Positions 21,451-45,116 of a DNA stretch of 45,116 bases are shown here, piece by piece. Position 1 is the first letter of the stretch, and each line of letters starts with the position of its first letter. This DNA comes from a virus. The notes below the pieces were generated by a model. The model did not search any database. It worked only from the letters and a program-made list of their open reading frames with translations, and was not told the origin of the DNA. Location of the stretch: IMG/VR virus record IMGVR_UViG_3300021431_000034, positions 1 through 45,116 of that record, one strand, 5' to 3'. The translations under genes were made by a program, and so were the position numbers.

Positions 21451-21879
21451 TCAAAGGTGGGAAAGGGTGGGATGTTTTAACCTGAAGTCTTCAAGTGCAT
21501 CCCTGTGTAATTCCTTCACATAATCAAAGGAATAATTCATTTCAACTGCAATCAGTTCATAGGACTTGATTTCAACATACCTTTTGAACAACACATTGAT
21601 GTATCTGTCATCATGCAGTTCCTGAATTTCACCTATGATTCTATGTCTGACTTGTTCAAGATGCAGAATCTGTTCCTGAACTTCCTGTTCAAGTGTCATA
21701 TACTGGATGACAAGACTTTCAAGTTTGGAATCCGTCATGGATGTCTGAACCTTGTCTTTGTCATACCTGATTGCACCTGCACCACTTGCAGCTTCTTTCA
21801 AATATTCAATTTGTTCTTCTTTCTGTTTTATCTTGGTTTCAAGCATTTTTATCTGCTGAAGATATTTCTGTGCATTCAC
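21451..21879 (-). CDS. Late transcriptional regulator, ArpU / DUF1492 (sigma-70 region-4-like)
   Basis: The C-terminus reads RYINVLFKRYVEIKSYELIAVEMNYSFDYVKELHRDALEDF. It lies directly upstream of terS. The likely start is GTG 21879, 5 nt after GAAAGAAGGTGA. Confidence 0.65.
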   Translation of the reverse strand: MNAQKYLQQIKMLETKIKQKEEQIEYLKEAASGAGAIRYDKDKVQTSMTDSKLESLVIQYMTLEQEVQEQILHLEQVRHRIIGEIQELHDDRYINVLFKRYVEIKSYELIAVEMNYSFDYVKELHRDALEDFRLKHPTLSHL

Positions 21880-21904
21880 TGGAATCACCTTCTTTCTGTT
21901 TTAT

Positions 21905-22201
21905 CGGTTCAAGGTGCGGTTCAAGGTGAAGCACATGTTTTAGGGTCACCTTGAACCGCTTCAAATCCTTGATTTTACTTGCTTTTGAGTGGGTCAAGGT
22001 TCAAGGTTCAAGGTGATGTCTATATATTTATTATATTTTTTACTATATACTTAATTTCACATAGTATGATTTTCTATATAATAAATAGAAAATACCTTGA
22101 ACCGCTTGAACCGATAACCTTTGAACCCTTTGTTTACAAGGGTTTGAAGCGGTTCAAGGTAAACAATTTCACCTTGAACCGACCTTGAACCACCTTGAAC
22201 C
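21905..22201. repeat. Iteron element R1: about 13 copies of GGTTCAAGGT / ACCTTGAACC flanking a 75-bp AT-rich core
   Basis: Forward copies start at 21906, 21918, 21998, 22005 and 22151. Reverse copies start at 21948, 22094, 22171, 22182 and 22192, plus degenerate copies. The AT core spans 22019-22093. The element is homologous to R2 in inverted orientation. Confidence 0.9.
22030..22060 (-). promoter_or_regulatory. Candidate outward (late-operon-facing) promoter inside the R1 core
   Basis: On the minus strand, GTGAAA (22060-22055) is followed by a 19-nt spacer and TATAAT (22035-22030). The same boxes are conserved in R2. Confidence 0.35.
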
Positions 22202-24430: not shown

Positions 24431-25762
24431 TTAGCATGAACCACCATCAGCACCATGAAATGCACCAACAGGATATTTCCAATCATTCACAAAGACATCA
24501 TCTTCAGTGAATTGACCTGTCAGGATGCTGTTCAATGCTTGCTTGTCATCCTTGACCACACATGAAGGTGTGCATCCAACAAAGGATTCCAAGTCTTGTT
24601 TATTGTCCAGGGTGAATCCAAGAATTCTTTCATCCTGCTTCAGTGCTTCCCATTCTTCAGGGAATAGTTCTTTGATTCCTGCAAACAACCTTGGTGTGCT
24701 GAAGATGCAAGTCATGCAAGAACACCGATTCCATCCGATTCTATAACAAGGGTGTGGATTCAATTTGTGCCTTTTCAGCAGTTCCCAAACATCTTTTTCA
24801 GTGTAGTCAATGCAGCACCGCCACTGATGGACTATTCTGTGGGAACGCTTTTCAGCATTGGTTCTGTGAATTTCCATTTCATTGTATTTTGCCCTTCCTG
24901 CTGATTCACCCCTTCTTTCACCTGAAACAATCAGAATCTTCTTGTCTGACCTGGTATTTTCCAGGTTGCTTGTCACACTGTCCTGGACTGCTGCTTTCAG
25001 GTTTCCGCTGCACCATCTTCCTTGGTGTGTTCCACCTTTTGCAGGAAACTTCAACCTTTTCCCACCAAGCTGTTCCAGTTCATGAAGACTGTCCAAATTG
25101 GACACCACACTGTCTGCAACACATATTTTCAGGTATGCAGAACACCATCTTCTTGACAGGTCAGGTGACTTTGCAGGAAACTTCATTCTATATCCGTATT
25201 CCTTCAGCAGTTCTTCCATTTCTTCTGTTGCCTGTTCTTTGATTTCTTTGCATTTCAGATAGTTGTTGGAAGGTTTGCATTGCTTCACTTCACCTGTGTC
25301 AGGGTCAATCCATTCAATAGGTTCTGATGCACCGATTCTGTACAGTTCCCCAAAGAAACCATTCACACGATATGAAACACGAAGGGTCACATCAAATGCT
25401 TTTGCAACCGCTTCAACATAGTTCCTGGTGCATTTCCAATCCATTGTTCTTGAAGGGTGTCCACCATCTATGTCATGATGCCAAAGTTCAATTTTTTCCT
25501 TTGGAACACCAAGTTCAAGCAGCTTCAGAAAACATGCTGTTGAATCCTTTCCACCGCTGAACAGAACCACAATCAGGTCATATTCTTCCAAGGGAAGCAG
25601 TTCAGGAAGAAAGATTTTCTTGAAATGTTCTGAATCATTCCTTCCAGGAACAGTTGGTTTCAGCCTGATTCCTTGTCCATAAATAGGTGAATCCTGCTTT
25701 CCATGAATGACTGGTGTGTCCTGTGTGCAGTCAGAATCCTTCAAAAATATTCCGTTTTCCAT
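24431..25762 (-). CDS. PAPS-reductase / PP-loop ATP-pyrophosphatase family protein with an internally duplicated insert
   Basis: The PP-loop is VLFSGGKDST, and SGERRGESAGR is also present. The tandem repeats are RMKFPAKSPDLSRRWCSAYLKICVADSVVSNL and RLKFPAKGGTHQGRWCSGNLKAAVQDSVTSNL. A Cys cluster reads CYRIGWNRCSCMTC. Confidence 0.7.
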   Translation of the reverse strand: MENGIFLKDSDCTQDTPVIHGKQDSPIYGQGIRLKPTVPGRNDSEHFKKIFLPELLPLEEYDLIVVLFSGGKDSTACFLKLLELGVPKEKIELWHHDIDGGHPSRTMDWKCTRNYVEAVAKAFDVTLRVSYRVNGFFGELYRIGASEPIEWIDPDTGEVKQCKPSNNYLKCKEIKEQATEEMEELLKEYGYRMKFPAKSPDLSRRWCSAYLKICVADSVVSNLDSLHELEQLGGKRLKFPAKGGTHQGRWCSGNLKAAVQDSVTSNLENTRSDKKILIVSGERRGESAGRAKYNEMEIHRTNAEKRSHRIVHQWRCCIDYTEKDVWELLKRHKLNPHPCYRIGWNRCSCMTCIFSTPRLFAGIKELFPEEWEALKQDERILGFTLDNKQDLESFVGCTPSCVVKDDKQALNSILTGQFTEDDVFVNDWKYPVGAFHGADGGSC

Positions 25763-27669
25763 CAGTTTTCACCTTCTTTCATGAAAATTCTGTACTTTTT
25801 CCCCTGAATTTTCTTGTCTTTTATGGTAAAACCATAGTATTTCTTGACCTGTTTTGAAAATTCGCCTGCTGACATAGGGGTCAGGTTGCTTGCAATGCAG
25901 TATTCCTGATATTGCTTGTACACATTGTTTGTTGGTTCGTTTTCAATCCTGATGTCTTCATCCCTTTCTGCTTCATGGAAGAAACCAAGAACAGGATTGT
26001 TTGTTTCTTCAAATTCTTCCAGTTCACGCTGCATTTCTTCAGATGTGGTGAACTTTCTTTCTGCAAGCAGTCTTTTCAGTGCTGCAAGACCAAGCTGAAT
26101 CATATATTCCATTGATTCCTGACTTTTCAGACTGTCACCAATAAAAGGTTTGAAGTTTGGGTCTTTGTCATCAAAATGTGCATGAAAGGGAACAATGACA
26201 AGTCTTCTTAAAACTGCACTTGAATCCCTTCCTTTTCCTATCCTTGGAATGTTGTTTGCACTGAATATCAACTTCACATAAGGTTCAAAATCAAACTTTG
26301 GTTGCCCTTTCTGTTCAGCATCAATGGTTTCACCTGTGACAATCTTCTTGAAGGATGCTGCATCAGTGACAAATTCATCTGAAATGTCATCACCAATGTT
26401 TGCAAGTTTTCCAAACAGCATGACTGTTGAAAATCTGTCATCCAGTTTCTTTAGGTCAAGCACTGACAGGTTCTTTCTTCCAAGCATGGTCTTCAGCATA
26501 TTCAGGAAGGTGGACTTTCCATTGCTTCCTGCACCAGTCAGGATGAACGCTTTTCCAAGTTCATTCCTTCTGAACATGCAATAACCAATCATTTCTTCAA
26601 GCAGTGACCTGATTTCCTTGTCATGACAGGAAATGTTGTCCATCACTTCATCAGTCAGTTCATAGTATGCATTAGGGTTATAATCCCAAGGGATGATGTT
26701 TGTGATGATGTGGTCAGGTGTGAAGGAAACAAAGCTGTCATCCTGAAGGTTCAGCAGTCCATTCCTGAATGCAATCATCCTTGCATCTGCTGTTGGTGTG
26801 TTTTCCCTGATTAGAATGTCCAAGTATGCCATGACTTCACTTCTTTTTGCCTTGTTTAGCTGTGGAAGATGCTGAATCATAGCAGATTCAATTTCACTTT
26901 GCCCTGGAACATATATCCCTTCTTTGTAAATGTGCAACTGGTTGTTGATTCTGATGATGTGATGGTTATTCTTCAGGAACACTGCAAACTTGTCAAACAG
27001 GAAGGTTGTTCCCTTGAAAAAGACAGGTTTTGCAAATGCTTCATCACGAAGAATCACTTCCAGTTCTTCAGGTGCAAGCGGTTCTTTCAAGACAAATTCA
27101 TTGGTTAGTCTGATTGATTCCCTTGCTTCTTCAACTGAAAAGTCATGTGCCTGAAGTGTCAGGATGTAATTGAACAGTGCCTGATTCCTTCCATCACCAG
27201 TTTCCATTCCAATGAAGTCTGCTGTGGTCTTGACAGGAAGCAGCCACTTTGGAAGGTCTTGTGCTTCTTCCTTCTTTCCAGTAGTGTCATATAAAATCGG
27301 TCTTTCTTTCCCATCAAACTTCAAGACTGAATATGAATTCCGCTTTCCAATCTTGATGTCTGCTGTGATTCCAACCGCAAGTGTTGCATGTGTCCTGTTG
27401 GAATTGACCAAATCAGGATTGTTGAATAAGAAGTGCTTTCCCCTGGTTGTTTTGTAAACTCTGCAACAAAGCTGTTTTTCCTTTACAATGTTGAACAGCA
27501 TTTCAGACTGTTCAAAATCATCCACATCCACCAGGATTGTTTTTTCAGACAAGATTCCTGCAAATTCAGGAAGTTCTTTGACTTCAGCATAAGACTTGAA
27601 AGATGTTCTTCCCTTAAACTTTTCTATGCACTTCTTATTCTGTGTAAGGACATAGCCTTTGAAAAACAT
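25762..27669 (-). CDS. DNA primase-helicase (Prim-Pol N-terminus plus P4/D5-type SF3 helicase)
   Basis: ILVDVDD and RGKHFLF are Prim-Pol motifs. The Walker A motif is ILTGAGSNGKSTFLNML. Confidence 0.85.
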   Translation of the reverse strand: MFFKGYVLTQNKKCIEKFKGRTSFKSYAEVKELPEFAGILSEKTILVDVDDFEQSEMLFNIVKEKQLCCRVYKTTRGKHFLFNNPDLVNSNRTHATLAVGITADIKIGKRNSYSVLKFDGKERPILYDTTGKKEEAQDLPKWLLPVKTTADFIGMETGDGRNQALFNYILTLQAHDFSVEEARESIRLTNEFVLKEPLAPEELEVILRDEAFAKPVFFKGTTFLFDKFAVFLKNNHHIIRINNQLHIYKEGIYVPGQSEIESAMIQHLPQLNKAKRSEVMAYLDILIRENTPTADARMIAFRNGLLNLQDDSFVSFTPDHIITNIIPWDYNPNAYYELTDEVMDNISCHDKEIRSLLEEMIGYCMFRRNELGKAFILTGAGSNGKSTFLNMLKTMLGRKNLSVLDLKKLDDRFSTVMLFGKLANIGDDISDEFVTDAASFKKIVTGETIDAEQKGQPKFDFEPYVKLIFSANNIPRIGKGRDSSAVLRRLVIVPFHAHFDDKDPNFKPFIGDSLKSQESMEYMIQLGLAALKRLLAERKFTTSEEMQRELEEFEETNNPVLGFFHEAERDEDIRIENEPTNNVYKQYQEYCIASNLTPMSAGEFSKQVKKYYGFTIKDKKIQGKKYRIFMKEGEN

Positions 27670-29943: not shown

Positions 29944-29987
29944 CTTTCAATTCACATCCTTTCTGTTCATTGTCTGCTTTCAAGATA

Positions 29988-30019
29988 CAGTGTGGTCAAA
30001 AAAATTTCTGACCACACTG
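29988..30019 (-). other. Perfect 11-bp hairpin immediately upstream of a GTATCTTGAAAGC box, ahead of the polymerase gene
   Basis: CAGTGTGGTCA (29988-98) pairs with TGACCACACTG (30009-19) across a 10-nt loop. No U-tract follows on the minus strand. Confidence 0.5.
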
Positions 30020-36404: not shown

Positions 36405-36447
36405 CCATCCTTTCTGCAAAATGTACGCTTTTAAGATACAACCGAAG
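36405..36447 (-). promoter_or_regulatory. Duplicated leader element (copy 2 of the 37911-37950 sequence)
   Basis: The plus strand reads CCATCCTTTCTGCAAAATGTACGCTTTTAAGATACAA here and CCATCCTTTCAAATGTACGCTTTCAAGATACAA at 37911. Each copy ends at the RBS of a minus-strand gene. Confidence 0.6.
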
Positions 36448-37905: not shown

Positions 37906-37947
37906 CTGACCCATCCTTTCAAATGTACGCTTTCAAGATACAAGACC

Positions 37948-37976
37948 ATTCTAATCACTTGCCTGTATCTTGTCAA
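37948..37976 (-). promoter_or_regulatory. Early promoter P_E (sigma-A consensus)
   Basis: On the minus strand, TTGACA (37976-71) is followed by a 17-nt spacer and TAGAAT (37953-48). Operator half-sites GTATCTTG lie in the spacer and just downstream. Confidence 0.75.
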
Positions 37977-38016
37977 GACCTTTTTTCAAATTTTCAAGAT
38001 ATTTTTTCAAGTAAGA

Positions 38017-38045
38017 TTGAAAAATACACTTGAATATGTTAATAT
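38017..38045 (+). promoter_or_regulatory. Repressor promoter (divergent from P_E)
   Basis: TTGAAA (38017-22) is followed by a 17-nt spacer containing an extended TGT, then TAATAT (38040-45). The RBS GAAAGGGATGGTGA precedes ATG 38101. Confidence 0.75.
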
Positions 38046-38066
38046 TCAAGATACAGTGTATCTTGA
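38046..38066. promoter_or_regulatory. Palindromic operator TCAAGATAC-AGT-GTATCTTGA
   Basis: A perfect 9-bp inverted repeat abuts the -10 of the repressor promoter. Further half-sites lie at 37933-41, 37965-72 and 37994-38002. Confidence 0.75.
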
Positions 38067-38100
38067 TAACACTACTATCTGAAAGGGATGGTGACCATCT

Positions 38101-38496
38101 ATGACAATGGGTGAATATATTAAATTGTTACGAAAAAACCATGACCTGACACAAGAAGAACTTGGTCAAAGGCTGCATCCAACTGTCAACAGGGCTGCAA
38201 TCAACAAATGGGAAACTGGACAGGTAGAAAACATCAAAAGGTCATATATTGAACAGATGTCAAAACTATTCCATGTCAGACCATGTGAACTGATGTGTTT
38301 TGACCAGGAACAGCAGATTTCAGAAGATGTCATTGCAATTGAACAGGTGCAGAAGCGGTTTGGAAAAGATGCTGTCAGGTTGCTTGAACTGTTCACTAAA
38401 CTGAATGAACTTGGAAAAGAAAAAGCATTGGAAGACCTGGATGACCTGACCAATCTTCCAAAGTACACTGAATCGGTTCAAGATGGTTCAAAGTAA
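38101..38496 (+). CDS. XRE-family (CI-like) repressor
   Basis: MGEYIKLLRKNHDLTQEELGQRLHPTVNRAAINKWETGQ. It is divergent from the early operon. Confidence 0.85.
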   Translation: MTMGEYIKLLRKNHDLTQEELGQRLHPTVNRAAINKWETGQVENIKRSYIEQMSKLFHVRPCELMCFDQEQQISEDVIAIEQVQKRFGKDAVRLLELFTKLNELGKEKALEDLDDLTNLPKYTESVQDGSK

Positions 38497-38769
38497 GTTC
38501 AAGGTAAACCAAAGCACCTTGAACCGCCTGAAACCCTTTATTTTCCTATTGTTACAAGGTTATCGGTTCAAGCGGTTCAAGGTACTATGAATTTCTTTTA
38601 TATAAAAATGTAGTATGTGAAATAACATATACTATAAAAATATAATAAATATATAAGGATTACCTTGAACCTTGAACCGATAGCACCCAAAACCCCAATA
38701 AAATCAAGGGTTTGAAGCGGTTCAAGGTGGATGAAAAAGAACCAATTCACCTTGAACTGACCTTGAACC
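38475..38769. repeat. Iteron element R2: an inverted homologue of R1, with about 11 GGTTCAAGGT / ACCTTGAACC copies around a 78-bp AT-rich core
   Basis: Forward copies start at 38475, 38485 and 38496 (these three degenerate), 38565, 38574 and 38719. Reverse copies start at 38516, 38662, 38669, 38749 and 38760. The AT core spans 38584-38661. The first three copies encode the last residues of the repressor. Confidence 0.9.
38617..38646 (+). promoter_or_regulatory. Candidate outward (integrase-facing) promoter inside the R2 core
   Basis: GTGAAA (38617-22) is followed by an 18-nt spacer and TATAAT (38641-46). It is a mirror image of the R1 candidate. Confidence 0.35.
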
Positions 38770-38789: not shown

Positions 38790-39071
38790 ATGGAACTGAA
38801 TGCTTTGGAACAAGAATTCTTTCAGGTGTTCCAGGATAGATTGACCCCTGAAGAAAGAAGTCAGCTTGTTTTGAAAAGACTTTCCAATGGTGCAATAGAA
38901 CCATACATCAGGCATTATCCACTTGGAAAAGTCAAACTGACTGGAAGAAAACACTGGATGCAAATATTCAAAACTGTGATGAAAGTAGAACTTTTTGAAG
39001 GAAACCTTCAAGAAATGATTGAAAAACAAGAAGAAACAATCAAGTATTTGCGGAAATACTGCAAGAAATAG
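38790..39071 (+). CDS. Hypothetical protein upstream of the integrase (possible recombination directionality factor; speculative)
   Basis: 93 aa with RBS AGAAAGAAGGTGG. I recognise no motif. Confidence 0.55.
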   Translation: MELNALEQEFFQVFQDRLTPEERSQLVLKRLSNGAIEPYIRHYPLGKVKLTGRKHWMQIFKTVMKVELFEGNLQEMIEKQEETIKYLRKYCKK

Positions 39072-39206
39072 AAAAAGACCTTCACCTGCTGCAACAGATG
39101 AAGGTCAGAAAGCAACCACTTCAGGATGGAAGAAATGGTCACTGAATCAATAAAATATTATAGCATTTCTTCCTTCCAAATTCAATGGAAAGGAAGGTGA
39201 CAGACT

Positions 39207-40262
39207 GTGAAAAATCCAAATGGTTATGGGTCAGTTGCAAAGCTGTCAGGAAACAGAAGGAAACCATTTTGGGTCAGGAAGACAGTTGGATGGAATGAAA
39301 AAGGTCATCCCATCTATGAAACAATAGGATATACCGCAACCAGGGAAGAAGGGAACATGTTGCTTGCATCCTATAACAAGAACCCTTGGGATGTGGACAG
39401 GGCAAAAATCACCCTTCAGGAACTGTTTGACCTATGGTTGGAAAAGAAAGCACCTAAACTTGGAAAAGCAAACCAAAGCAGTCTGAAGTCTGCATTCAAT
39501 CACATCAGGAAGTATTCTGATATGAGATACAAAGAAATAAGGTCATACCACATGCAGGATTGCATTGATTTCTGTGGAAAAGGTTATTCCACCCAAGCTG
39601 CAATCAAGAACCTGTGGGGTCACCTGGACAGGTTTGCACTGGAACTGGATGTCATCACAAGGATGTATTCAGAACTTCTGACATCAGACCCAATTCCCCA
39701 AACTTCAAGGGAAAGGTTCACTGATGCAGAAATAAAGAAAGTGTGGAAAGTTTATGGTGAATACCAGGAAGGAAAAGACTTTGGTTCTGTTCCTGTGGAA
39801 TGGATTGACACTGTTCTGATTTTCCTTTATTCAGGATTCAGAATCAGTGAACTGCTGACACTGAAGACAGACAATGTTGACCTGGATGCAGGAACATTCA
39901 AAGGTGGTGTGAAGACCAAAGCAGGAAAGAACAGGATTGTTCCTATTCATTCAAAGATTGTTCCCCTGGTTGAACACCGCCTGGATGCAGACAGTGAATT
40001 CTTCATCAATGTGAATGGTGACCAGGTATCACAAACCACATACAGAACATACTGGAATGACCTGATGCAGTTCCTTCACATAGAAAAGACACCGCATGAA
40101 TGCAGACACACATTTGAATCCATCTTGGATTCTAAAGGTGCAAACAGGAAGTGCATTGACCTGATGATGGGTCATGTTTCAAAGGATGTTGGAAACAGGG
40201 TGTACAATCATAAAACACTGGAAGAACTGAAGACTGCAATTGAACTTTTGAAAGTGAACTAA
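39207..40262 (+). CDS. int: Tyrosine recombinase / phage integrase
   Basis: The N-terminus NGYGSVAKLSGNRRKPFWVRK is arm-binding-like. The C-terminus reads HECRHTFES...LMMGHVSKDVGNRVYNH (R..H-x-x-R..Y). It uses a GTG start behind AAGGAAGGTGA. Confidence 0.9.
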   Translation: MKNPNGYGSVAKLSGNRRKPFWVRKTVGWNEKGHPIYETIGYTATREEGNMLLASYNKNPWDVDRAKITLQELFDLWLEKKAPKLGKANQSSLKSAFNHIRKYSDMRYKEIRSYHMQDCIDFCGKGYSTQAAIKNLWGHLDRFALELDVITRMYSELLTSDPIPQTSRERFTDAEIKKVWKVYGEYQEGKDFGSVPVEWIDTVLIFLYSGFRISELLTLKTDNVDLDAGTFKGGVKTKAGKNRIVPIHSKIVPLVEHRLDADSEFFINVNGDQVSQTTYRTYWNDLMQFLHIEKTPHECRHTFESILDSKGANRKCIDLMMGHVSKDVGNRVYNHKTLEELKTAIELLKVN

Positions 40263-43171: not shown

Positions 43172-43438
43172 TTAACCTAACATTTCATAGACATCACAAA
43201 GTGCAATCTGTGTGTCAGTCATCTGCTGTTCAAGGGATGCATTCTTGTCATCAATCATCTTGATGTATTCATCCTTGTCATACTGCACCAGGTTGTATTC
43301 AAAACCAGTGAATCCTTCCTGGTCATCAGTTCCTGCTTCAGAAACCGCCTGGATGTCAGATGCAATCCACACACTGAATTCATCAATGACCTTTTCTTCA
43401 GGTCTGACTGTGCTTCTTGTCTTTCCATAATCTTTCAT
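43172..43438 (-). CDS. Acidic 88-aa protein translationally coupled to the DGR reverse transcriptase
   Basis: Its ATG 43438 overlaps the RT stop (ATGA). The C-terminus LEQQMTDTQIALCDVYEML recalls small proteins found after tail-fibre genes. Confidence 0.6.
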   Translation of the reverse strand: MKDYGKTRSTVRPEEKVIDEFSVWIASDIQAVSEAGTDDQEGFTGFEYNLVQYDKDEYIKMIDDKNASLEQQMTDTQIALCDVYEMLG

Positions 43439-44505
43439 GTGACTTTACCGCCTTTCTTGTTTTTGATGTTGAATTCATAGTATGCATCTGCATACTTCTG
43501 AACTGGTGCAATGTACTTCTGTGACAACCTATAACTATCACAATGAATCAACCATCCCTTATAGGAATTGATGGAACACCATTCTGAATAGGTCAAAGGT
43601 TTTCCTTCCAACCTGTGCCTGTTCACATTGGTCAGCTTCTTTTTCATCTGCTTGCAGGTGGTCTTCCTTAACAGCTTATAGTTCAAGAAAATTCTATAAC
43701 CCACATAGTCAACACCCCTGACATAGGAAGGAAATATTTGCCAGTTTCCTTTGATTTTAAGTTTCAGGTTCACTTTGAAGTATTCCCTGATGTCTGCAAG
43801 CAATCTGTGCAATTCTTCCTTGGTTTCACCGAAAATCACAATGTCATCCATGTATCTGAAATAGTGCTTCACATGTTTGACTTCTTTTATCCAGTGGTCA
43901 AATGCTGACAGATAGAAATTCCCTGAATACTGTGAAATATAGTTCCCAATAGGAATTCCAGTGTCACCTGGTGTGGAATCAATGATTTCATCCAATAACC
44001 AAAGCAGGTCATCATCCTTGAACAGTTTTCTGTATTTAGTTTTCAGAATGTCATGATTGATGGAAGGATAATATTTCTTTGCATCAATCTTCAAACAATA
44101 CTGACAACCAGGAACATCAGTCTGCATTGCCTTTTCCACCTTGTGCAAACACTTGTGGATTCCCCTTTCAGGGATTGCAGAATAGGTGTCATCAGTGAAG
44201 GTCTTCAGCAGAATTGGTTCAATGACCTGTAAGATTGCCCACTGACATATTCTGTCAGGGAAATAGGGCAACTTATAAATCAGTCTTTCCTTTCCACTGT
44301 CCTTCTTGATGAAGGTTTCATATTCTGATGTTTGATAGGTTTTATTGATTAGCATGTCCTGAAGCATCTTCAGATACTTGTCAGGGTCTTCATCAATCAT
44401 CTTGACTTCCTTGTACCAACCTTTTCCTTTCTTTGCATTCTTGTGTGCAAGTTTCAGGTTGTCCATGTCATAGATTCTTGAATATAAATTTCCATACCGC
44501 TTCAT
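43435..44505 (-). CDS. DGR-type reverse transcriptase
   Basis: It has the YMDD box (FRYMDDIVIFG) and the DGR-characteristic IGNYISQ motif (PIGNYISQYSGNFYL). It sits 161 nt downstream of a template repeat. Confidence 0.92.
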   Translation of the reverse strand: MKRYGNLYSRIYDMDNLKLAHKNAKKGKGWYKEVKMIDEDPDKYLKMLQDMLINKTYQTSEYETFIKKDSGKERLIYKLPYFPDRICQWAILQVIEPILLKTFTDDTYSAIPERGIHKCLHKVEKAMQTDVPGCQYCLKIDAKKYYPSINHDILKTKYRKLFKDDDLLWLLDEIIDSTPGDTGIPIGNYISQYSGNFYLSAFDHWIKEVKHVKHYFRYMDDIVIFGETKEELHRLLADIREYFKVNLKLKIKGNWQIFPSYVRGVDYVGYRIFLNYKLLRKTTCKQMKKKLTNVNRHRLEGKPLTYSEWCSINSYKGWLIHCDSYRLSQKYIAPVQKYADAYYEFNIKNKKGGKVT

Positions 44506-44622
44506 TTTGTATGCACATTTGAATGGTCAAATCTTCAAGAAAATAAAGATTTTCTTTACCAATACAACCTTTCATTCTTTTTCTGTTTTGGCAAGTGCCA
44601 GGGCAATATTGTTCACATGTAA

Positions 44623-44654
44623 GAAGCAGGACATCATTTCTGACATCCTGCTTC
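44623..44654 (-). other. Hairpin in the TR-RT spacer
   Basis: GAAGCAGGA (44623-31) pairs with TCCTGCTTC (44646-54). The loop contains the direct repeat GATGTC. Confidence 0.5.
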
Positions 44655-44666
44655 CTGTTTTTAATA

Positions 44667-44785
44667 TGCATTTAGTAAGTGACTGCTGATATTCCGATTA
44701 CGATTCGACACTGCATTATTCACATTCCAATAGAAACTGCCTGCATTAGCACCATTATTCCAATTACTGCCTAATTTAGCAACTG
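44667..44785 (-). repeat. DGR template repeat (TR), 119 bp
   Basis: It aligns without gaps to VR at an offset of 224 nt. It has 39 adenines on the coding strand. In the VR frame it would encode VAKLGSNWNNGANAGSFYWNVNNAVSNRNRNISSHLLNA, with 11 AAT Asn codons. Confidence 0.9.
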
Positions 44786-44872
44786 GTGTTTACTGACTTT
44801 TTCAATGGTTTGTGATTCTGACAGTTTGAAAACAATCAGCACAAATTGCCCATAATAATCTTTTTAAGTTCC

Positions 44873-45116
44873 TTATGCAGCAGATGCAGGTGCATACAGC
44901 AAGCGACCGCCGACATACCGATAACGAGCCGACACCGCATTAATCACATACCAATCGAAACCGCCCGCATCAGCACCATTAGTCCAATGACCGCCCAATA
45001 TAGCAACCGTGTACTGGGAAGATGCTTTGTTCTGATAGAAATTATCACCAACAGGAAGTGAACTGTTTCCATTGACTTCAGAAGCAATGAACAACCAGTC
45101 AAAGTCTTCACTGTAT
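44873..45116 (-). CDS. 3' end of the DGR target tail fiber gene (continues from 1659..1 via the circular junction)
   Basis: ...EDFDWLFIASEVNGNSSLPVGDNFYQNKASSQYTVAILGGHWTNGADAGGFDWYVINAVSARYRYVGGRLLYAPASAA*. The stop is TAA at 44875..44873. The track start at 45094 is an internal TTG. Confidence 0.85.
   Translation of the reverse strand, partial: YSEDFDWLFIASEVNGNSSLPVGDNFYQNKASSQYTVAILGGHWTNGADAGGFDWYVINAVSARYRYVGGRLLYAPASAA
44891..45009 (-). repeat. DGR variable repeat (VR), 119 bp; its first 20 bp are also present at 1..20
   Basis: There are 24 mismatches to TR. 23 are at TR-adenine positions (seen as T on the plus strand) and one is not (TR 44732 a versus VR 44956 c). VR ends 5 codons before the stop. 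Confidence 0.9.
44990..45116. repeat. Terminal redundancy, copy 2 (= 1..127)
   Basis: An exact copy of the first 127 bases of the window. Confidence 0.95.

Follow-up and report, generated by a model that had tools for sequence, protein, structure and literature searches.

A second, inverted cassette, probably of origin type and occupied by the phage primase-helicase, beside the integrase gene of a temperate Clostridia phage

Why should a temperate phage carry the same repeat-rich element twice, in opposite orientations, at the two borders of its early region? The question is raised by the IMG/VR virus record IMGVR_UViG_3300021431_000034, of which positions 1 to 45,116 (45,116 nucleotides, here called the window) have been analysed. 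The element under study, R2, stands between the repressor candidate and the integrase gene (int), while its partner, R1, lies between the early operon and the late genes; as inverted repeats the two bracket 16.3 kb. R2 is probably a second origin-type cassette, inverted with respect to R1 and occupied by the primase-helicase of the phage, in a relation similar to that of oriR to oriL in bacteriophage SPP1, a reading drawn from sequence comparison and from a modelled protein domain.

The kinship of the two elements had been proposed in a sequence-only reading of the window, and it was borne out by automated self-comparison on both strands. With blastn, R2 matches the reverse complement of R1 (22201-21906) with 76.6% identity over 299 nt (E=8e-55), and a repeat search recovers the inverted arms as 21919-22040/38636-38757 (122 nt, 77%) and 22037-22126/38551-38640 (90 nt, 79%). 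The match in direct orientation is much weaker (68%, E=7e-18) and arises solely because each element is itself pseudo-palindromic. Alignment with MAFFT also upheld the shared order of segments described in that reading, the motif blocks and a 29-mer (AAGGTTATCGGTTCAAGCGGTTCAAGGTA) being identical and the spacers diverged. In both elements, outer iterons are followed by an inverted iteron with an auxiliary motif, by two inner iterons and by a core of ~78 nt with 86% A+T, beyond which the same parts appear in mirror image, and the inner pairs (GGTTCAAGCGGTTCAAGGT on the plus strand and ACCTTGAACCTTGAACC on the minus strand) have opposite polarity across the 78-nt core. The iteron is ~10 nt long and consists of a conserved 6-nt core, TTCAAG, with variable flanks (here GGTTCAAGGT). 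Exact copies of GGTTCAAGG number 16 in the genome, and all of them fall within the cassettes (10 among the 13 iterons of R1, 6 among the 11 of R2); when up to one mismatch is allowed, 57 matches are found, compared with 12.9 +/- 3.7 in shuffled sequences. The three tandem copies announced for the left end of R2 are indeed there, but they are degenerate (GGTTCAAGAT, GGTTCAAAGT and AGTTCAAGGT). The auxiliary motif, AATCAAGGRTTTSAAGC, is present once per arm in each cassette and is mirrored (21958-21974, 22134-22150, 38526-38542, 38702-38718); it is partly kept in relatives of differing iteron class and may be an iteron that has degenerated, or else a second factor may bind there. A scan of R1 and R2 against Rfam gave no match. 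The distance from the helicase gene is 3.6 kb to the start of R1, on its downstream side, and 10.8 kb to R2, on its upstream side.

The centres of the two cassettes rank lowest in duplex stability among all 80-mers of the genome, at -77.8 and -78.7 kcal/mol against a genome mean of -105.7 kcal/mol (standard deviation 4.0), that is, ~7 standard deviations below it. A common core layout is shared by ~40 distinct cassettes from related phages: left iterons, TTCTTATATA, a palindrome specific to the phage (GTATGTGAAATAACATATAC in the window, AATCATTAAATTTTAATGATT in many relatives, GCAATATTGC at locus L129), a cTAAAAA(A)TAA..TATAAT-like stretch, and right iterons. In all of these ~40 cassettes the TAAAAA..TATAAT-like box is conserved and points outward from the early region. 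In the window, a same-strand gene begins ~20-35 nt beyond the end of each cassette, and in one relative (L316) the cassette directly abuts int. R2 contains, in addition, a GTGAAA-18-TATAAT pair (38617-38646), whose counterpart in R1 has a 19-nt spacer, and which had been described as a conserved, outward-pointing pair in both elements. Such features could be expected if the cassettes were mainly outward promoters with operator arrays (for the initiator, the XRE repressor or the ArpU-like factor) that control the late regulator and orf93-int. This explanation is nevertheless unlikely. The pair is present and its TATAAT-like half is both conserved and outward, whereas GTGAAA sits in the phage-specific, non-conserved palindrome; a scan for the promoter consensus gave 6 matches compared with 3.7 +/- 2.0 in shuffled sequences, which is not above chance, and R1 was not called. 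Furthermore, the type of iteron is independent of the XRE, HTH160 and ArpU-like proteins, and the operators of the genetic switch are built on a different palindrome, TTCAAGATACA-G-TGTATCTTGA, which shares the TTCAAG hexamer with the iterons and otherwise differs from them. With this palindrome as the standard of comparison, two proposals have been rejected, namely that the iterons are operators of the repressor and that the core palindrome is a switch operator. Nor is there a match between the core palindrome and the iterons. In the switch itself (37915-38100), promoter-like sites diverge, with TTGACA-17-TAGAAT on the minus and TTGAAA-17-TAATAT on the plus strand, and the operator half-site recurs upstream of two internal early genes (29979-29989 and 36430-36440).

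Both cassettes recur in related phages. When 80 viral loci were fetched around homologues of the helicase (57-87% identity), nearly all those reaching the border between early and late genes had an R1-position cassette of the same architecture. For R2-type copies, the survey was made on 44 loci anchored on the SNF2 gene with int upstream of the early region, and an int-proximal cassette (<=1.5 kb from int) was found in 32 of them, with iterons that vary by lineage (TGGTACA, AGTGTAA, GGTAACA, TACTACA and others). A first scan of the collection with GGTTCAAGG-N(0-30)-GGTTCAAGG had returned mostly noise from coding tandem repeats, only ~9 of 120 loci being true relatives. Paired copies are also found in integrated prophages of cultured strains. 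For example, two copies in inverted orientation, separated by 14 kb and sharing 97.4% identity over 342 nt, are present in the prophage of Sporomusa acidovorans DSM 3132, and that of Falcatimonas sp. MSJ-15 has an inverted cassette pair with 12 AAGTGTAA iterons each, that is, with a different iteron. Among near-identical population variants of the phage, 2 of 97 iteron positions are variable compared with 23 of 266 other positions (Fisher p=0.033). The proposal that selection acts on protein-binding sites, rather than the copies being a fresh duplication, is thus sustained by the recurrence of both copies in relatives, by iterons that change together and by the lower variability of iteron positions. 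The signal of concerted evolution is mixed: close relatives group R1 with R1 and R2 with R2, and the partner within the genome is the closest sequence only at larger distances (the window phage and L129) and in Sporomusa, with its 97% identical copies. For this reason only episodic homogenisation is claimed. A different tandem array has been observed in relatives (L174 1759-2021, L284 9387-9619, L142 888-1120 and many others) between the homologues of HTH160 and SNF2; it is one-directional, with 7-18 copies of a ~15-nt unit that includes ACAGCGGT, and many IMG/VR contigs break there. The ACAGCGGT array is absent from the window, where the HTH160 and SNF2 genes abut.

The candidate for the protein that recognises the iterons is the primase-helicase of the early operon, a member of superfamily 3 (SF3) related to the PriRep proteins of Staphylococcus aureus pathogenicity islands (SaPIs). 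It matches TIGR01613 ('primase, P4 family') with 207 bits (cut-off 108.7), Pfam D5_N, DUF5906 and Pox_D5, and phrog_864 (E=3.7e-202), and a phmmer search of the PDB aligns its residues 245-612 with 7OLA, the PriRep5 of SaPI5 (E=1.8e-44). Co-variation was followed in ~40 related phages, in which the flanks of TTCAAG differ (GG, TG, AT or AA on the 5' side; GT, AT or TT on the 3' side). Judged by the area under the curve (AUC) for motif class, the last 60 residues of the helicase are the best predictor (0.865), followed by the upstream gene (0.753), the rest of the helicase (0.643), the small terminase gene terS (0.615) and the ArpU-like protein (0.558). An unbiased scan of the 641 columns of the helicase alignment placed residue 620 first for the 5' dinucleotide, with an adjusted mutual information of 0.95 (next column, 0.48): K goes with GG, R with TG (in three separate lineages), W with AT, and T or V with AA. 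The top helicase columns for the 3' dinucleotide are K609 and G602. Between the AT and GG classes there are exactly 6 fixed helicase differences, all of them in residues 612-621 of proteins that are otherwise 93-99% identical. The int-proximal copies, compared with the helicase of the same locus, combine K620 with GG (11/11), R620 with TG (1/1) and G602/K609 with GT (5/5), while the 5' flank of R2 is not fixed in T/V620 phages. The C-terminal domain, modelled with AlphaFold from 36 homologues (pLDDT, the predicted local distance difference test score, 80), is a winged helix in which residues 601-612 form the recognition helix and residues 614-631 a beta-hairpin wing, with residue 620 near the wing tip. 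Its top fold matches in Foldseek, although weak, are winged-helix DNA binders, namely the DNA-binding domain of RFX and the Orc1/Cdc6 winged helix in complex with origin DNA; an earlier single-sequence model of the domain was poor (pLDDT 55). Taken together, this evidence points to the C-terminal winged helix of the helicase as the domain that binds the iterons. Other candidates for the binder were examined and rejected. The ArpU-like protein is 96% identical across differing motifs and 15% identical within the same motif, the XRE repressor is 91% identical in the TG-type locus L203 and only 46% in the GG-type locus L124, and HTH160 has no relation to the motif. The product of terS, whose identity falls to 14% within one motif class, was discarded as well.

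The last of these results bears on another explanation, according to which the elements serve in packaging, as pac/cos sites recognised by the small terminase. In pac sites of the SPP1 type, boxes bound by the small terminase surround the cleavage site, and with R1 placed ~470 nt upstream of terS such an arrangement would offer a parallel. It is, however, the least probable of the explanations considered here, since the same iteron is accompanied by small terminases of such low identity, with the modest AUC given above, and R2 is 17 kb from terS, beside int, with a motif that tracks the helicase domain.

The position of R2 next to int, with short repeats around an AT-rich centre, suggests in turn that it could be attP or hold the arm sites of the integrase; similarly, inverted repeats that bracket the early region could be the targets of a site-specific invertase that flips it. 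Two contigs of a more distant lineage, with a helicase 45% identical to that of the window, L273 (11052-12491) and L274 (12659-14103), show the order helicase (+), cassette, integrase (+), which is that of the junction of an R1-R2 inversion. Both proposals are nonetheless very improbable. In integrated prophages (those of Ihubacter, C. asparagiforme, Sporomusa and Falcatimonas) the cassette is found whole and away from the ends, and in the chromosomal prophages L279, L281, L284 and L301 it stands undivided between int and the repressor gene; it is not split by integration and therefore is not attP. Besides, integrases 90-91% identical to the one encoded here are found in phages with TG-type iterons. 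As regards flipping, no invertase gene was found among the proteins scanned, and gene order and orientation were the same in 10 of 10 places among the matches listed (23 contigs read). A metagenome contig of the same phage (L327, 28,308 nt) ends inside the inner right iterons of R2 and has the length of the outer arc from R2 to R1; this match fits an assembly break at shared k-mers, apparently at both cassettes, and is not evidence of flipping.

Two-array arrangements are known from several replicons, and their comparison with R1 and R2 places the preferred reading, that of a second origin-type cassette, in context. The origins of SaPIs have 6-12 short iterons around an AT-rich centre, at least two per side and in opposite directions, and are bound by the C-terminal winged helix of Rep (PMC9371898). 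The initiator of the window phage is homologous (PriRep5, 7OLA), the description of 6-12 iterons around an AT centre with opposed sides also holds for R1 and R2, and, just as the specificity of each SaPI matches its own Rep, the iteron flanks appear to track the helicase winged helix. On the other hand, SaPIs have one origin directly 3' of rep, whereas here two complete inverted cassettes lie away from the helicase gene; the iterons are longer (~10 nt), and the carrier is a complete temperate phage that encodes a family-B polymerase of its own. In the relatives L179/L180 and in Paenibacillus phage Wanderer, the cassette does lie directly 3' of the helicase gene, like the origin of SaPIs. Another example is phage P4, with an initiator of the same family (TIGR01613). 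The alpha protein of P4 has a C-terminal winged-helix origin-binding domain, and two separated iteron regions, ori and crr, are bound by the initiator; the binding of alpha to both and the winged-helix fold have reportedly been described (Ziegelin et al. 1993, 1995; Yeo et al. 2002), and the second region, crr, is said to be required (Flensburg and Calendar 1987; Ziegelin et al. 1993). However, crr is a pair of direct 120-bp repeats and no copy of ori, and initiation takes place only at ori, while R2 repeats R1 once, co-linearly and inverted, with the AT core included. In the plasmids P1 (incC/incA) and F (incB/incC), two iteron arrays flank the replication gene or genes and the second array can titrate or handcuff the initiator. 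The likeness consists of two arrays of initiator iterons around a replication gene; in contrast, the initiators belong to a different family (RepA/RepE winged-helix dimers), and the control arrays of those plasmids lack an unwinding core and are direct, not inverted, repeats. A functional parallel is SPP1, a phage with a 44-kb genome in which oriL and oriR are ~13 kb apart, both are bound by the initiator and each combines repeats with an AT-rich unwinding element (PMC6316719). In both phages two distant origin-like regions (~13-17 kb apart), each with repeats and an AT element, are found in a circularised genome of ~44-45 kb, and the window phage also has a Hjc-like resolvase, a PD-(D/E)XK plus AAA_24 protein and a DUF669 protein. 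The resemblance is functional and not homologous. The initiator of SPP1 is unrelated (gp38 with a DnaB-type helicase and a loader, with oriL inside gene 38), SPP1 is virulent, and its copies have not been described as full-length inverted duplicates bracketing the early region; among the early-region proteins scanned here there was no Pfam match to a DnaB-, loader- or gp38-type family, the helicase being of the SF3 type.

Several observations weigh against the reading of R2 as an origin-type cassette bound by the helicase. The int-proximal cassette is not detectable in the remaining 12 of the 44 related loci, and R2 is poorer than R1 in exact iterons (6 versus 10), as are its equivalents in relatives. 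A single origin suffices for SaPIs and for the nearest cultured relative, Paenibacillus phage Wanderer, which has the same replication module, a helicase 50% identical and one cassette, located directly 3' of the primase gene. The core is asymmetric: its TAAAAA..TATAAT-like box is in every case turned toward the gene downstream (ArpU-like or orf93/int), a hint that the core may act in transcription as well as, or in place of, firing. The Foldseek matches of the modelled domain have weak E-values (0.05-0.4). Finally, the co-variation could stem in part from linkage within the replication module, although the localised nature of the co-varying patch and the convergent R620/TG pairing speak against this. 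The presence of one cassette in Wanderer indicates that the duplication is a feature of the clade and not a requirement of the initiator. It is possible, though clearly less likely than an origin-type role, that R2 binds the helicase without firing, as a partner similar to crr that loops to R1 as the true origin, as a titration or handcuffing array similar to incA, or as a roadblock for forks. The lower number of consensus iterons, the single cassette of Wanderer and the second iteron region reportedly needed by P4, which has an initiator of the same family, would all be in accordance with an accessory site of this kind. A precedent for the roadblock is oriR of SPP1, where gp38 has been proposed to form a fork barrier that leads to recombination-dependent synthesis of concatemers (PMC6316719). 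Nevertheless, R2 keeps the full anatomy of an origin, with an AT core as unstable as that of R1 and the same conserved core boxes, and a role purely in titration is disfavoured because a titration site would need neither the core nor the boxes.

If R2 is indeed an origin-type cassette, events could proceed as follows. Early expression of the helicase would be followed by binding of its winged helix to the iterons on both arms and by oligomerisation; the AT core would then melt and the hexamer would load itself, in the way of the self-loading SF3 helicases of the P4-alpha and SaPI Rep type, and priming and extension would be carried out by the phage primase domain and the family-B polymerase. 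R2 would either fire or, once bound, act on forks arriving from R1. The inverted orientation would be tolerable to a recombination-proficient phage, since direct repeats would delete the early region. A more doubtful extension, slightly less likely than the promoter explanation, is that the paired inverted origins are not redundant but form a device for the switch to concatemer replication and for the timing of the outward promoters. According to this proposal, concatemers would arise either through initiator bound at the second copy or through recombination of the inverted pair in the course of theta replication (a fork flip of the Futcher type, using the resolvase and the nuclease/annealing genes of the phage), and occupancy or unwinding of the cores would time the outward promoters of the late regulator (R1) and of orf93-int (R2). 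A single DNA-binding domain would in this way link replication with late transcription and excision.

The features of the locus are collected in Table 1. By its gene content, the phage is temperate, siphovirus-like and of Firmicutes (Clostridia) type. An exact 127-nt terminal direct repeat (1-127 = 44990-45116) identifies the window as a circularly assembled genome of ~44,989 bp; in the simplest view this repeat is the overlap of a circular assembly, and it is therefore uninformative on the physical ends of the genome. The nearest genomic relatives are prophages and contigs of metagenome-assembled genomes of Ruminococcus and other Clostridia, and no close deposited phage came up when window positions 21000-45116 were compared by megablast with the phage collection. 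The early operon encodes SNF2, an SLT domain protein, an HNH protein, the Hjc-like resolvase, the PD-(D/E)XK plus AAA_24 protein, DUF669, the family-B DNA polymerase, the D5/P4-type primase-helicase, a PAPS-reductase-like protein, DUF3310-MazG, ThyX and an HD-like protein, and it is followed on the minus strand by the ArpU-like regulator, terS (Terminase_2 family), terL and the late genes. The open reading frame (ORF) of the repressor does end ...TESVQDGSK* across the first two iterons of R2. In the closest relatives, this ORF ends ..KYSE* or ..KYSV* just before the first iteron, so that the read-through, which adds 7 codons, is a peculiarity of this phage. The overlap is incidental.

Table 1. 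Coordinates of the two cassettes, of the parts of R2 and of the associated genes (positions in the window)
Feature	Position	Strand	Remarks
R2, whole second origin-type cassette	38475..38769	+	first to last iteron
R2 outer left iterons GGTTCAAGAT, GGTTCAAAGT, AGTTCAAGGT	38475..38505	+	three degenerate direct copies; first two form the last 7 codons of the XRE ORF
R2 inverted iteron ACCTTGAACC and auxiliary motif (reverse complement of AATAAAGGGTTTCAGGC)	38516..38542	-	left arm of 30-nt internal inverted repeat
R2 inner left iterons GGTTCAAGC GGTTCAAGGT	38565..38583	+	toward core; within the 29-mer identical to R1
R2 AT-rich core, putative DNA-unwinding element	38584..38661	+	86% A+T, ~78 nt
Within R2 core: TTCTTTTATATA	38593-38604
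Within R2 core: palindrome GTATGTGAAATAACATATAC	38613-38632
Within R2 core: TATAAAAATATAATAAATATATA box, TATAAT	38641-38646		position is that of TATAAT
R2 inner right iterons ACCTTGAACCTTGAACC	38662..38678	-	7-nt register; polarity opposite to inner left
R2 auxiliary motif AATCAAGGGTTTGAAGC and iteron GGTTCAAGGTG	38702..38729	+	right arm of internal inverted repeat
R2 outer right iterons ACCTTGAACT, 1-nt spacer (G), ACCTTGAACC	38749..38769	-	20 nt upstream of orf93 start
R1, partner cassette, opposite orientation	21906..22201	-	10 exact and 3 near-exact iterons; core 22015-22093; between early operon and ArpU-like/terS late genes
P4-family / SaPI PriRep-like SF3 primase-helicase	25762..27669	-	635 aa; inferred iteron binder
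Helicase C-terminal winged helix	residues ~580-631 (nt ~25777-25932)	-	G602 and K609 in recognition helix; K620 near wing tip
Early operon	37914 down to 22208	-	long
ArpU-like / sigma-region-4-like late regulator	21451..21888	-	phrog_36; first gene downstream of R1
XRE-family (CI-like) repressor candidate	38101..38496	+	stop codon inside first R2 iterons
orf93, function unassigned	38790..39071	+	first gene downstream of R2
Tyrosine integrase	39207..40262	+

Two further observations concern the surroundings of int and the end of the window. Between orf93 and int there is a strong hairpin of 13 pairs (39077-39106) that scores as a minus-strand terminator, and a promoter-like site with TG on the same strand (39185-39157, TTGAAT-17-TATAAT); together they suggest a short antisense or convergent transcript upstream of int. 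A complete diversity-generating retroelement occupies window positions 43435-45116 on the minus strand. It comprises a reverse transcriptase at 43435-44505, the Rfam RT-17 RNA at 44507-44605 and two repeats of 98 nt, the template repeat at 44667-44764 and the variable one at 44891-44988. Of the 19 mismatches between these repeats, 18 fall at template adenines, and the variable repeat is located at the 3' end of a tail-fibre-like gene that spans the circular junction.

The component parts described here are already known in kind, and many related prophages of gut and anaerobic bacteria have kept them as an inverted pair. The analysis gives a probable function, and a named candidate for the binding protein, to a conspicuous non-coding element in widespread uncultured temperate phages of gut and rumen Clostridia. 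Dual origin-type sites, documented before in SPP1 and P4, would thereby represent a conserved design in another initiator family. A recognition code is predicted for a winged-helix origin-binding domain, in which the wing-tip residue would read the 5' flank of the iteron (K for GG, R for TG, W for AT), and this code may be of use for predicting replicon compatibility and for obtaining orthogonal pairs of origin and initiator. Strains in culture that carry both copies, Sporomusa acidovorans DSM 3132 and Falcatimonas sp. MSJ-15, make the system approachable by experiment. For the biology of the lysogen, it is of significance that cassettes are found at both borders of the early region and that one of them is 1.6 kb from the prophage end, because firing in situ at that place would amplify the adjoining host DNA.

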